Translations under genes and position numbers: made by a program
Assembly: GCF_003018115.1 (NCBI RefSeq)
Contig: NZ_CP027457.1
DNA from: Escherichia coli
GTDB taxonomy: Bacteria; Pseudomonadota; Gammaproteobacteria; Enterobacterales; Enterobacteriaceae
Length of the DNA stretch: 64,000 nucleotides
Reading direction: 5' to 3' (one strand)
Shown: in pieces, positions 13,205 to 61,670 of the stretch
How positions within the stretch are numbered: the first letter of the stretch is position 1
How the letters are laid out: each line of letters starts with the position of its first letter
The notes under the pieces: generated by a model
What the model was told of the DNA's origin: nothing
Database searches by the model: none
Seen by the model: only the letters and a program-made list of their open reading frames with translations

Positions 13205-14755
13205 ATGCCCACTTCTCATGAAAATGCACTGCAACAACGTTGCCAGCAAATTGTCACCAGCCCAGTGCTTAGCCCGGAGCAGAAGCGCCATTTTCTGGCA
13301 CTGGAAGCAGAAAACAATCTGCCTTACCCACAGCTTCCTGCCGAAGCCCGCCGCGCGCTGGATGAAGGTGTAATCTGCGATATGTTTGAAGGTCATGCGC
13401 CGTACAAACCGCGCTATGTCTTACCCGATTACGCCCGTTTTCTGGCGAACGGTTCCGAATGGCTGGAGCTGGAAGGCGCGAAAGATCTTGATGACGCACT
13501 CTCTCTGCTGACCATTCTTTACCACCACGTACCGTCGGTCACATCGATGCCGGTCTACCTGGGGCAACTGGATGCGTTGTTGCAACCGTATGTTAGAATT
13601 CTAACACAAGACGAGATCGATGTTCGAATAAAACGTTTCTGGCGTTACCTCGACAGAACCCTGCCAGACGCCTTTATGCACGCCAATATCGGCCCGTCTG
13701 ATTCGCCCATTACCCGCGCGATCTTACGTGCAGACGCAGAGTTGAAGCAGGTTTCACCGAACCTGACCTTTATCTACGATCCTGAAATCACCCCTGATGA
13801 CCTGCTGCTGGAAGTGGCGAAGAACATCTGTGAATGTAGCAAACCGCACATCGCCAACGGTCCGGTGCATGATAAAATTTTCACAAAAGGGGGCTACGGG
13901 ATTGTGAGCTGTTACAACTCACTGCCGCTGGCGGGTGGTGGCAGCACGCTGGTACGCCTTAACCTGAAAGCCATTGCCGAGCGCAGCGAATCGCTGGATG
14001 ACTTCTTTACGCGCACTCTACCGCACTACTGCCAGCAGCAGATCGCCATCATCGATGCGCGGTGTGAATTCCTCTATCAACAATCACACTTCTTTGAGAA
14101 TAGCTTCCTGGTGAAAGAAGGGCTGATTAACCCTGAACGTTTTGTGCCAATGTTTGGCATGTATGGGCTGGCGGAAGCGGTTAACTTGCTGTGTGAGAAA
14201 GAAGGGATTGCCGCGCGCTACGGTAAAGAAGCCGCCGCAAATGAAGTGGGTTATCGCATCAGCGCGCAACTGGCGGAGTTTGTCGCCAATACCCCCGTGA
14301 AATATGGCTGGCAAAAACGCGCCATGTTACACGCACAGTCGGGGATCAGTTCCGATATCGGCACCACGCCGGGCGCGCGTTTGCCGTATGGCGATGAGCC
14401 AGATCCGATCACCCATCTGCAAACTGTCGCCCCGCATCATGCTTATTATTATTCCGGCATCAGCGACATTCTGACGCTCGACGAAACCATCAAACGTAAC
14501 CCGCAGGCACTGGTACAGCTTTGCCTCGGTGCCTTTAAAGCCGGAATGCGTGAATTTACCGCCAATGTCAGCGGTAACGATCTGGTTCGCGTTACCGGTT
14601 ATATGGTGCGTTTGTCGGATTTAGAAAAATATCGCGCCGAAGGTTCACGCACCAACACCACCTGGCTGGGCGAAGAAGCCGCACGCAACACTCGTATTCT
14701 GGAACGCCAGCCGCGCGTGATAAGCCATGAACAGCAGATGCGCTTTAGTCAGTAA
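13205..14755 (+). CDS. yjjI: YjjI, glycyl-radical-enzyme family protein of unknown substrate (516 aa)
   Basis: ORF track 516 aa; C-terminal glycyl radical-type motif RVTGYMVRL; divergent from deoC. Confidence 0.9.
13591..13606 (-). promoter_or_regulatory. DeoR operator O1 at deoP1
   Basis: perfect 16-bp palindrome TGTTAGAATTCTAACA exactly 599 bp upstream of O2. Confidence 0.7.
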
Positions 14756-15590
14756 GATTATCCCCTTCTCCTGCGTTGACGGGCCAGGCAGTCGTCTGGC
14801 TCTGTTTTTGCAGGGCTGCAATCTGCGCTGCAAAAACTGTCACAATCCGTGGACGATGGGGCGTTGTAATCATTGCGGAGAGTGCGTGCCACAGTGTCCG
14901 CATCAGGCGTTGCAGATTGTTGACGGCAAAGTGGTGTGGAACGCTGTGGTTTGCGAGCAGTGTGATACCTGCCTGAAGATGTGTCCGCAACATGCCACAC
15001 CAATGGCGCAATCCATGAGCGTGGACGAAGTGCTTAGCCATGTCCGCAAAGCAGTGCTGTTTATCGAAGGGATAACGGTGAGTGGCGGTGAAGCCACGAC
15101 CCAGCTGCCGTTTGTGGTGGCGCTGTTTACTGCCATCAAAAACGATCCGCAACTGTGCCATCTCACCTGCCTCGTGGACAGTAACGGTATGTTGAGCGAA
15201 ACCGGCTGGGAAAAATTGCTCCCGGTGTGCGACGGCGCAATGCTCGATCTCAAAGCGTGGGGGAGCGAATGTCATCAACAATTAACCGGACGCGATAATC
15301 AGCAGATTAAGCGCAGCATCTGTTTGCTGGCAGAGCGCGGCAAGCTGGCGGAACTGCGTTTGCTGGTGATCCCTGGCCAGGTGGATTATTTGCAACACAT
15401 CGAAGAACTGGCGGCGTTTATCAAGGGAGTCGGCGATGTTCCGGTACGCCTGAACGCGTTTCATGCCCACGGCGTGTATGGCGAGGCGCAAAGCTGGGCG
15501 AGCGCCACGCCGGAAGACGTTGAGCCGTTGGCTGATGCGTTCCGGGAGCGCGGGGTGAGCCGGTTAATATTTCCGGCGCTGTATTTGTGA
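14727..15590 (+). CDS. yjjW: YjjW, glycyl-radical-enzyme activating enzyme (radical SAM, 287 aa)
   Basis: ORF track; CNLRCKNC (CX3CX2C) radical-SAM cluster plus two ferredoxin-like Cys clusters ([24 protein letters not shown]); overlaps yjjI by 29 bp. Confidence 0.9.
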
Positions 15591-16095
15591 CATGCCGGAT
15601 ACGGCCTACGGTTCGGCACAGACTTGTAGGCCTGATAAGACGCGTCAAGCGTCGCATCAGGCATTGTGCGCCAACTGCCGGATGCGGCGTGAACGCCTTA
15701 TCCGGCCTACGGTTCGGCACAGACTTGTAGGCATGATAAGACGCGTCAGCGTCGCATCAGGCATTGTGCGCCAACTGCCGGATGCGGCGTGAACGCCTTA
15801 TCCGGCCTACGGTTCGGCACAGACTTGTAGGCATGATAAGACGCGTCAGCGTCGCATCAGGCATTGTGCGCCAACTGCCGGATGCGGCGTGAACGCCTTA
15901 TCCGGCCTATGGTTCGGCACAGACTTGTAGGCATGATAAGACGCGTCAGTGTCGCATCAGGCATTGTGCGCCAACTGCCGGATGCGGCGTGAACGCCTTA
16001 TCCGGCCTACGGTTCGGCACAGACTTGTAGGCATGATAAGACGCGTCAAGCGTCGCATCAGGCATTATGCGCCGACTGCCGGATGCTGCCTACGA
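15591..16095. repeat. tandem REP/BIME array, five ~100-bp units
   Basis: GGTTCGGCACAGACTTGTAGGC recurs at 15610, 15711, 15811, 15911 and 16011; each unit holds two inverted REP palindromes. Confidence 0.9.
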
Positions 16096-16103
16096 AGGGC
16101 AAA

Positions 16104-16886
16104 CTACCCACTAACGCTAAACACCGCATACGTATTATTAAGCAACACTTCGGCAATCTCATCTTCTGGTTCCGGGCGCAACTCGCAAAGCACGTCAAAC
16201 ACCCGCACAGCCTGTTCCGGGCGGTTAGGCTGCCCCTGAAAGCCGTTGAGCGGCATATCCGGCGCGTCGGTTTCCAGCAACAACGATGCCAGCGGTAATT
16301 TTGCGATGACATCGCGGGTTTTACTGGCGCGTGGATAGGTGATAGTACCGCCTACGCCGATTTTGTAGCCCAGCTGTACAAACCGCTCTGCCTGTTGCAG
16401 GCTGCCGGAAAAACCGTGAACCACGCCAGTGCGCGATAAATCGTGGCGTTTAAGATGCATCGCCAGTTTGTCGTGTGTGCGCCGTGAATGCAGGATCACC
16501 GGCAGATCGTAGCGTTTCGCCAGTTTCAGTTGTTCGTCGAGTAACCACTGCTGCCTCTCAAATTGCGAATCGTCGCCGAAGAGATCCAGACCGATCTCCC
16601 CCACTGCCACCACCTTCGCCGGACGCCTTTCCAGCGCCTGCTGTAGCTGCTCAAGAGACACATAGCTATGTTTTTCCAACATACCAGGATGCAAGCCCAA
16701 TGCGGCATACAGCGGTTGATAATTTTCCGCTAATGCCAACACACGGGCAAAATTTTCCGCCTCTGTCGCCGGAACAATGATCTTGCCTACACCCGCTTGT
16801 GCCGCGCGTTGCAGGCTGGCCTCTTCATCGCCACTAAACGGCGGGAAATCAAAATGGCAGTGGGTGTCGATAAAACGGCAAATCAA
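16104..16886 (-). CDS. yjjV: TatD-family metal-dependent hydrolase YjjV (260 aa)
   Basis: ORF track; N-terminal IDTHCHFDF motif typical of TatD-like hydrolases. Confidence 0.9.
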   Translation of the reverse strand: MICRFIDTHCHFDFPPFSGDEEASLQRAAQAGVGKIIVPATEAENFARVLALAENYQPLYAALGLHPGMLEKHSYVSLEQLQQALERRPAKVVAVGEIGLDLFGDDSQFERQQWLLDEQLKLAKRYDLPVILHSRRTHDKLAMHLKRHDLSRTGVVHGFSGSLQQAERFVQLGYKIGVGGTITYPRASKTRDVIAKLPLASLLLETDAPDMPLNGFQGQPNRPEQAVRVFDVLCELRPEPEDEIAEVLLNNTYAVFSVSG

Positions 16887-23965: not shown

Positions 23966-24052
23966 GCGAAGGTGGCGGAATTGGTAGACGCGCTAGCTTC
24001 AGGTGTTAGTGTCCTTACGGACGTGGGGGTTCAAGTCCCCCCCCTCGCACCA
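23966..24052 (+). tRNA. leuV: tRNA-Leu (anticodon CAG), 87 nt
   Basis: GCGAAGGTGGCGGAATTGGTAGACGCGCTAGCTTCAGGTG...TCGCACCA with encoded CCA and long variable arm. Confidence 0.95.
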
Positions 24053-24080
24053 AAAACCACGTTGATATTGCTCGCACTGG

Positions 24081-24166
24081 GCGAAGGTGGCGGAATTGGT
24101 AGACGCGCTAGCTTCAGGTGTTAGTGTTCTTACGGACGTGGGGGTTCAAGTCCCCCCCTCGCACCA
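24081..24166 (+). tRNA. leuP: tRNA-Leu (anticodon CAG), variant copy of 86 nt
   Basis: same as flanking copies except C to T in the variable arm (GTGTTCTT vs GTGTCCTT) and a C-run of 7 instead of 8 at the T-stem/acceptor junction. Confidence 0.85.
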
Positions 24167-24200
24167 AACGAGGCGATATCAAAAAAAGTAAGATGACTGT

Positions 24201-24287
24201 GCGAAGGTGGCGGAATTGGTAGACGCGCTAGCTTCAGGTGTTAGTGTCCTTACGGACGTGGGGGTTCAAGTCCCCCCCCTCGCACCA
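24201..24287 (+). tRNA. leuQ: tRNA-Leu (anticodon CAG), 87 nt
   Basis: identical to the first copy. Confidence 0.95.
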
Positions 24288-61582: not shown

Positions 61583-61589
61583 ATTTAGC

Positions 61590-61670
61590 GCGGTGCGGAT
61601 GTGCGCCAACACACCCGCACCGCTCATCACAATCACTATTTATGGAGAATAGTAATCATGACTGACACGC
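61590..61670 (-). ncRNA. symR: SymR antisense sRNA overlapping the symE 5' UTR and start codon (boundaries approximate)
   Basis: position opposite the symE translation initiation region; 9-bp-stem hairpin GCGGTGCGG / CCGCACCGC at 61590-61623; minus-strand TAGAAT-like -10 at 61671-61676. Ends are inferred, not read directly. Confidence 0.3.

Follow-up and report, generated by a model that had tools for sequence, protein, structure and literature searches.

The tandem REP arrays classed as BIME-2, a name that rests on the nomenclature of Gilson, Bachellier and Hofnung (summarised in PMC3333891), consist of z2 and y REPs in multiple tandem copies separated by short linkers, with a copy number at each locus that varies between strains (Ton-Hoang et al., 2012, PMC3333891). 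One of them, REP325, is made up of six repeats in which a short linker joins a Y to a Z2 palindrome, and is the element on which the covariance model RF02564 (naRNA4) was modelled (PMC4550694). According to a preprint (bioRxiv 10.64898/2026.03.23.713779), REP325 both attenuates transcription in a partly Rho-dependent manner and stabilises the mRNA upstream of it; its transcripts form a ladder with hairpin ends, and deleting it measurably affects the neighbouring genes. The same preprint reports that where REPs lie between convergent genes the expression of both genes is higher, and that 78 REPs are found in predicted bidirectional terminators; it also finds that, across the genome, mRNAs of REP-terminated genes are not longer-lived, and emphasises that context matters. 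At the level of DNA, gyrase cleavage is enriched in BIME-2, in Y more than in Z2 REPs and independently of transcription, and is seen in only a subset of BIME-2 (Sutormin et al., PMC6379681). Borders between supercoiling regions are a preferred location of BIME-2, and the diffusion of supercoils is blocked where a BIME-2 has been inserted (PMC10592627).

The array considered here is an ordinary BIME-2 of Y and inverted Z2 REPs, and as such belongs to known biology. It is located in a 64,000-nt stretch of Escherichia coli DNA (assembly GCF_003018115.1, contig NZ_CP027457.1), referred to below as the window, to which all coordinates apply unless another sequence is named. The array and the genes on either side of it are:

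14727-15590, + strand: yjjW, encoding a YjjW-family glycyl-radical enzyme activase (TIGR04041, 397.9 bits; cut-off 250.2); its TGA stop codon is at 15588-15590
15594-16093, no strand assigned: whole BIME-2 array, with five Z2 REPs, four intact Y REPs and two Y remnants, in units of 100-101 bp
16104-16886, - strand: yjjV, encoding a TatD-family metal-dependent hydrolase (NF008522, 565.5 bits; cut-off 481); its stop codon is at 16104-16106

The genes are convergent, with an intergenic gap of 513 bp (15591-16103); 3 nt separate the yjjW stop codon from the start of the array, and there are 10 nt between its end and yjjV. In this allele the array is extragenic, lying wholly between the two stop codons. 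A preliminary description had reported a head-to-tail REP/BIME array of five copies of a unit of about 100 bp, with a period of 100-101 bp, filling a gap of 510 bp between convergent genes, and apart from the small correction in gap length this picture stands. Tandem Repeats Finder places the array at 15602-16086, with a period of 100, 4.8 copies, 97% matches, 0% indels and a score of 917, for which “five” is a fair rounding. The period of 100-101 bp follows from the spacing of two words, GTAGGC (at 15626, 15727, 15827, 15927, and 16027) and GCCGGAT (at 15594, 15677, 15777, 15877, 15977, and 16078), located by word search, and a repeat search of the gap returned three 200-nt copies with 99-100% identity at a spacing of exactly 100 nt. 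The REP/BIME identity can be sharpened to BIME-2, with alternating Y and Z2 REPs, short linkers and no IHF core.

Units were dissected by splitting the gap at each GCCGGAT. In each, a 16-nt linker (GGTTCGGCACAGACTT) joins a Y REP (GCCGGATGCGGCGTGAACGCCTTATCCGGCCTAC) to an inverted Z2 REP (GTAGGCaTGATAAGACGCGTCAGCGTCGCATCAGGC), which is followed by a second linker of 12-14 nt (ATTGTGCGCCAACT). The individual elements are:

15594-15609, - strand: left-edge Y remnant GCCGGATACGGCCTAC, which has lost ~18 nt of inner hairpin and keeps a 4-bp stem only (-6.8 / -4.5 kcal/mol)
15626-15664, + strand: Z2 REP 1, with GTAG 5' on the + strand and an intact stem (-21.8 / -21.3 kcal/mol)
15677-15710, - strand: Y REP 1, GTAG-first on the - strand and reading GCCGGATGCGGCGTGAACGCCTTATCCGGCCTAC on the + strand (-21.3 / -19.5 kcal/mol)
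15727-15763, + strand: Z2 REP 2, with a C>A stem mismatch and a loop shorter by 1 nt, GCGTCAGCG (-15.3 kcal/mol)
15777-15810, - strand: Y REP 2, identified by dissection and folding
15827-15863, + strand: Z2 REP 3, with the same sequence as Z2 REP 2
15877-15910, - strand: Y REP 3, with the tail CCTAT instead of CCTAC, so that the GTAG tetranucleotide is mutated to ATAG
15927-15963, + strand: Z2 REP 4, whose inner stem has a further C>T change; its hairpin is the weakest (-13.4 / -9.4 kcal/mol)
15977-16010, - strand: Y REP 4, identified by dissection and folding
16027-16065, + strand: Z2 REP 5, in the 5-nt loop form and followed by the linker variant ATTATGCGCCGACT
16078-16093, - strand: right-edge Y remnant GCCGGATGCTGCCTAC, in which ~18 nt of the inner hairpin are gone and no hairpin forms (0 to -0.6 kcal/mol)

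The unit is 100 bp long where it has the shorter Z2 loop. Intact Y hairpins fold with -21.3 kcal/mol on the + strand and -19.5 kcal/mol on the - strand. All of Z2 copies 2-5 carry the C>A stem mismatch, which is flagged as a non-canonical pair in the RF02564 alignment, and their folding energies range from -15.3 down to -9.4 kcal/mol; the propagation of this mismatch among the Z2 copies indicates that they arose by duplication of the unit. When the whole gap was folded and compared with shuffled sequences, z was -9.95 for the + strand and -11.13 for the - strand, and hairpin potential is thus strong on both strands. The repeat search reported no inverted repeats in the gap, but it works from a 9-nt exact seed, which the imperfect REP stems fall short of, and this zero is therefore not evidence against hairpins. 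No terminator-like site was found within the gap by the promoter/terminator scan, nowhere in it are there four or more consecutive T or A residues, and the IHF core motif WATCAANNNNTTR has no match on either of its strands. With no terminator-like site in the gap, neither of the convergent genes has any structured 3' element to use other than the REP hairpins.

Judged by sequence, every characteristic of a BIME-2 is present at the yjjW-yjjV locus. The alignment to the RF02564 model spans one Y and one Z2 hairpin (not Z1) in each unit. REPs and inverted REPs alternate, with a CCTAC...GTAGG junction in every unit except at Y REP 3, which has CCTAT. Both linkers (16 nt and 12-14 nt) are short, without the long L motif that defines BIME-1 and without an IHF site, and the copies are in tandem (4.8 of them, at 97% identity). 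Matches to RF02564 above the gathering score of 59.5 bits were found for four units in the array:

15629-15707, - strand (yjjV sense): RF02564 (naRNA4) unit, 83.1 bits
15730-15807, - strand (yjjV sense): RF02564 (naRNA4) unit, 79.1 bits
15830-15907, - strand (yjjV sense): RF02564 (naRNA4) unit, 79.1 bits
15930-16007, - strand (yjjV sense): RF02564 (naRNA4) unit, 73.1 bits

On the + strand the scores are 61.0, 54.7, 54.7, and 51.3 bits, against the same gathering score. RF02564 was built from REP325, itself a BIME-2, so a match shows membership of the repeat family and not the presence of an RNA gene. Elsewhere in the window there is a second match to the model (2537-2615, - strand, 67.5 bits), which is another Y/Z2 REP pair, between a nadS pseudogene and ettA in the RefSeq annotation of the identical strain.

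The RF02564 matches also bear on a reading of the array as a source of nucleoid-associated RNAs. By analogy with REP325, read-through from yjjV would give naRNA4-like RNAs of ~80 nt with two hairpins, and these would bind HU, bridge cruciform DNA and condense the chromosome (PMC4550694). That four units exceed the gathering score in the yjjV sense, that a sigma-54 motif inside yjjV points into the array, and the original HU-naRNA4 proposal itself (PMC4550694) are all in its favor; that yjjV read-through or the sigma-54 motif supplies transcription of the array is speculation. However, RF02564 describes in effect any Y-linker-Z2 pair, and says nothing of expression or HU binding, while the linker between the hairpins, AGUUGGCGCACAAU in the yjjW-yjjV array, differs from that of the model. 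The nucleoid role of REP325 is moreover now disputed: HU binding by REP325/naRNA4 is only of moderate affinity, measurable nucleoid compaction was not seen, and REP-REP contacts are absent from Hi-C, in work whose authors include S. Adhya, an author of the original study (bioRxiv 10.64898/2026.03.23.713779). A nucleoid RNA function for this array is accordingly considered very unlikely.

Both flanking genes have internal sigma-54 motifs. The one in yjjV (16276-16292, - strand; CTGGCATCGTTGTTGCT, one mismatch) is ~170 nt upstream of the yjjV stop codon, with no gene downstream on the same strand, and the one in yjjW (14796-14812, + strand; CTGGCTCTGTTTTTGCA) is exact. They correspond to the K-12 “inside sense” ChIP-seq sites IS56 (yjjV) and IS57 (yjjW) of Bonocora et al. 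(2015). A weak sigma-70-like pair, TAGGCA-17-CATAAT (nine of 12 matches), is found in the last array unit (16064-16092, - strand), directed towards yjjW in antisense. On the - strand of the gap region the promoter scan gave two weak promoter-like matches, compared with 0.5 +/- 0.7 in shuffled sequences, which is not compelling. Two other features of the window, a SymR antitoxin RNA match (61587-61663, - strand, 95.3 bits) and three tandem tRNA genes (23966-24284, + strand; tRNA-Leu in the identical RefSeq record), are both ordinary and unrelated to the array.

Two long open reading frames that overlap the array, 15592-15792 and 15949-16239, had been set down as spurious in the preliminary description, rightly so to all appearances. 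They are in the ORF list and stay open for 66 and 96 codons, but it is hardly credible that they encode real small proteins: neither has a Pfam match, the identical RefSeq record has no PGAP annotation in the gap, and 15949-16239 runs antisense into yjjV. In addition, since 100 and 101 bp are not multiples of three, the frame rotates from unit to unit and shifts with every change in copy number. The ORFs are by-products of the repeat, and the gap is best annotated as a repeat region in which they are ignored; its significance beyond annotation is small.

The distribution of the locus in E. coli was surveyed with a query made of the flanks only (500 bp from the yjjW 3' end and 500 bp from the yjjV 3' end). 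It matched 5,423 of 5,426 complete E. coli genomes, and in 5,394 the two flanks were joined. Between E. coli genomes the 1-kb yjjV/yjjW flanks share only 92-98% identity, seemingly a low value for core genes. For a count of units, 59 complete E. coli genomes were sampled systematically; their gap lengths fall into discrete classes ~100 bp apart: two genomes have no unit, 16 have one, nine have two, eight have three, nine have four, 14 have five, and one has six. With ~11 units in another Escherichia (see below), this agrees with the earlier expectation that copy number would prove variable between strains when unit counts were compared across genomes. All of the K-12 derivatives sampled have four units and all of the O157:H7 strains two, so the locus is stable within clones and variable between lineages.

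These counts also bear on whether the five copies in the window could be an assembly artefact, with the repeat mis-collapsed or mis-expanded, as ~100-bp tandem repeats with 97-100% identity are hard to size from short reads. An identical stretch of 1301 bp is, however, present in three separately deposited complete genomes (F8111-1SC3, O169:H41 2014EL-1345-2, and LR882990), alleles with five units are common (14 of the 59 genomes), and the counts in K-12 derivatives (four) and O157:H7 (two) are constant across many independent assemblies. An artefact is effectively excluded by these observations, and the five-unit copy number is real.

Outside E. coli, species-representative genomes were scanned for the exact linker-junction pattern, a search that would miss Escherichia and other enterobacteria with other linkers. 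Two non-coli Escherichia with the locus were found among them. Escherichia sp. MOD1-EC7003 has ~11 units between flanks that are 91-93% identical (gap at 3230-4343 of the extracted locus L011; Tandem Repeats Finder 3258-4351, 10.9 copies, 93% matches), and Escherichia sp. E1V33 has ~2 units at the yjjW-yjjV locus. The long array in MOD1-EC7003 implies that the element either predates the diversification of E. coli or has crossed species. At the other extreme, the shortest E. coli allele, in AREA_499, is a single Y REP that spans the whole gap of 33 bp. At least one intact REP is kept in every allele examined, that is, in the dissected E. coli alleles and the two from non-coli Escherichia. In strain L1PEag1 (NZ_CP145513), a copy of IS1397 is inserted in the loop of a single Y REP, between GGCGTAAAC and AAACGCC, with an AAAC target duplication (~6522-7953 of the extracted locus L010); this is a classic BIME-specific insertion. 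Similar insertions, or very long arrays, may be present in the ~29 of the 5,423 genomes in which the flanks are not joined.

For a gap without any other terminator, between convergent operons, a bidirectional, gyrase-binding hairpin barrier is the natural assignment. Taken as a whole, we consider it probable that the array is a BIME-2 that gains and loses units locally, that it acts as a bidirectional 3' hairpin barrier or attenuator and as a gyrase site, and that copies beyond the first are near-neutral; for function, this draws on analogy with the characterized elements described above. At the RNA level, the hairpins would shield the yjjIW and yjjUV transcripts from 3'-exonucleases, each in its own direction, and they may also hold down convergent read-through as an attenuator that depends partly on Rho. 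In the DNA itself, the Y REPs would be preferred sites of gyrase binding and cleavage, and the element could be a local topological barrier. The insulator and mRNA-stabilizer roles suggested for the array at the outset are documented for the BIME-2/REP family (bioRxiv 10.64898/2026.03.23.713779; PMC6379681; PMC10592627); in the preprint supplements, yjjW is named only in a differential-expression list. A lone Y REP makes up the shortest natural allele, which suggests that one REP suffices for what the site requires and that further copies are probably near-neutral. Because healthy lineages carry anywhere between one REP and 11 units, copy number as such can be of little importance; unequal recombination or slippage probably generated the extra copies, with near-neutral effect.

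The balance between the RNA and DNA levels could be different. It is possible, although on the unlikely side, that the element works chiefly on DNA, as a strong gyrase site and topological insulator at the point where positive supercoils from the two convergent transcription units meet, with any effects on RNA incidental. The over-representation of gyrase cleavage in BIME-2, transcription-independent and favoring Y REPs (PMC6379681), would be in keeping with this, as would the enrichment of BIME-2 at supercoiling borders and the block to supercoil diffusion by an inserted copy (PMC10592627), and yjjW and yjjV are indeed convergent. On the other hand, only a subset of BIME-2 is cleaved (PMC6379681), and the single-REP allele has no Y/Z2 pair.

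Whichever function is assigned to the hairpins, the growth of the array appears to be a local process. The dissected alleles are mosaics of a few linker and loop variants, and the five-unit alleles of the window and of RM9088 differ in their unit compositions, so that this copy number was reached independently. The junction of the array-specific linker (s-linker) occurs 1-6 times per genome and tracks the yjjW-yjjV locus wherever its matches could be placed; in K-12 there are exactly two occurrences, which is the number of K-12 units that carry this variant. These counts favor local amplification, and oppose dispersal of the 100-bp unit. From such comparisons it is strongly inferred that units are gained and lost through unequal homologous recombination within the locus, or through replication slippage from one unit to another; recombination mediated by TnpA-REP (RAYT), which has been proposed for BIME amplification (PMC3333891), is a possible alternative. 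One variant, the GCGTCAGCG Z2 loop of the 100-bp unit, at first seemed private to the lineage of the window, being absent from eight other dissected alleles. This was withdrawn when exact matches were found at the yjjW-yjjV locus of RM14723, and the variant is also present in MOD1-EC7003; the 48-nt query for it is non-specific, matching at a median of eight places per genome.

Variation among units is unevenly distributed. In 24 distinct units, variable positions make up three of 46 columns in the stems but 21 of 47 in the loops and linkers (Fisher p = 3e-5, with the reservation that duplicated units are not independent). The pattern is consistent with a constraint on the hairpins, but the conservation of stems could instead be due to gene conversion or to shared descent of duplicated units, and not to structural selection. 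A more thoroughgoing view would make the whole element, even a single REP, a selfish or neutral minisatellite that persists through the dynamics of duplication and deletion together with weak selection. Such an origin would sit well with the range of 0-11 units without loss of the locus, with a stem-weakening mismatch that has simply been copied along the internal Z2 copies, with the decay of both edge REPs to remnants in the window allele, and with the lack of a genome-wide REP effect on half-life (bioRxiv 10.64898/2026.03.23.713779). It is nevertheless regarded as unlikely, given an intact REP in every allele examined, stems that vary less than loops and linkers, the lack of any other terminator-like structure in the gap, and the measurable effects of REP325 deletion on neighboring genes.

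The edges of the array differ between alleles. A left-edge remnant of the same kind as in the window is found in K-12, in O157, and in the alleles of both non-coli Escherichia, while in Z247, AREA_499, and L1PEag1 the left edge is a full Y REP, 3 nt from the yjjW stop codon. At the right edge, K-12, Z247, AREA_499, MOD1-EC7003, and E1V33 have an intact Y REP whose CTAC tail is the yjjV stop codon, and with it YjjV ends in ...TLFNVP or ...TLFNVS (...TLFNVP in the K-12 haplotype, with 259 aa). In the haplotype of the window, which is common to O157, RM9088, C51, and others, the right-edge remnant is followed by GAAGGGCAAA, and YjjV ends in ...AVFSVSG (260 aa), with the last six to seven codons changed. 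Over its last ~30 nt (16104-16135) yjjV thus falls into two haplotypes that have diverged sharply, and which of them is present goes with the state of the neighbouring REP. The intact right Y REP in both non-coli Escherichia and K-12-type alleles indicates that the right edge of the window is the derived state.

These differences may be of interest because a REP hairpin less than 16 nt downstream of a stop codon has been described as a translational down-regulator that stalls ribosomes (Liang, Rudd & Deutscher, 2015, as related in PMC12306157). In the window allele ~39-40 nt separate each stop codon from the first intact stem, and the elements next to the stop codons have no hairpin, which places this allele outside that distance. 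In K-12-type alleles, by comparison, an intact Y REP lies directly at the yjjV stop codon, and in Z247, AREA_499, and L1PEag1 a full Y REP is within 3 nt of that of yjjW. If the stop-proximity rule is true, YjjV and YjjW output would be expected to depend on the allele. A broader proposal, that edge decay is functionally meaningful in this way and that, separately, the sigma-54 site in yjjV drives a naRNA4-like RNA from the array, is on the whole doubtful.

As a clean and clonally stable length polymorphism, with ~100 bp per step and 0-6 units in E. coli, the locus might serve as a typing marker. Its natural alleles, from a single REP to 11 units and with intact or decayed stop-proximal REPs, also form a ready-made allelic series, which could be used to probe both the “dual terminator/stabiliser” and the stop-codon-proximity translation models of REP function.

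The nearest comparison is with K-12 itself, since the yjjW-yjjV BIME-2 is already in the K-12 reference genome, with four units. In MG1655 the gap (NC_000913.3 4614261-4614679) is 419 bp long compared to 513 bp in the window, and the RefSeq feature table lists only CDSs for the region. Element, position and left-edge remnant are the same; at the right edge, K-12 has an intact Y REP with its CTAC tail as the yjjV stop codon where the window has a remnant without a hairpin; the C-terminus of YjjV differs as well. REP325/naRNA4, located in K-12 between yjdM and yjdN, has the same two-hairpin unit of Y REP, linker and Z2 REP, in six units rather than five, but it lies between tandem genes of one operon and the array described here between convergent genes. 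With the REPIN/RAYT (TnpA-REP) system the array shares inverted REP pairs with a conserved GTAG, which are substrates of E. coli TnpA-REP in vitro; in contrast, no RAYT gene adjoins it, and its variation looks like local gain and loss of units rather than transposition. The likeness to BIME-2 as a class (PMC3333891) extends to the alternation of Y and Z2 REPs, the extragenic position between convergent genes, conservation within the locus, copy number that varies between strains, and IS1397 insertion into a REP loop. Nothing essential is different, and the local features that set this array apart are the reduction of the Y REPs at both edges to remnants and the stem mismatch carried by its internal Z2 REPs.
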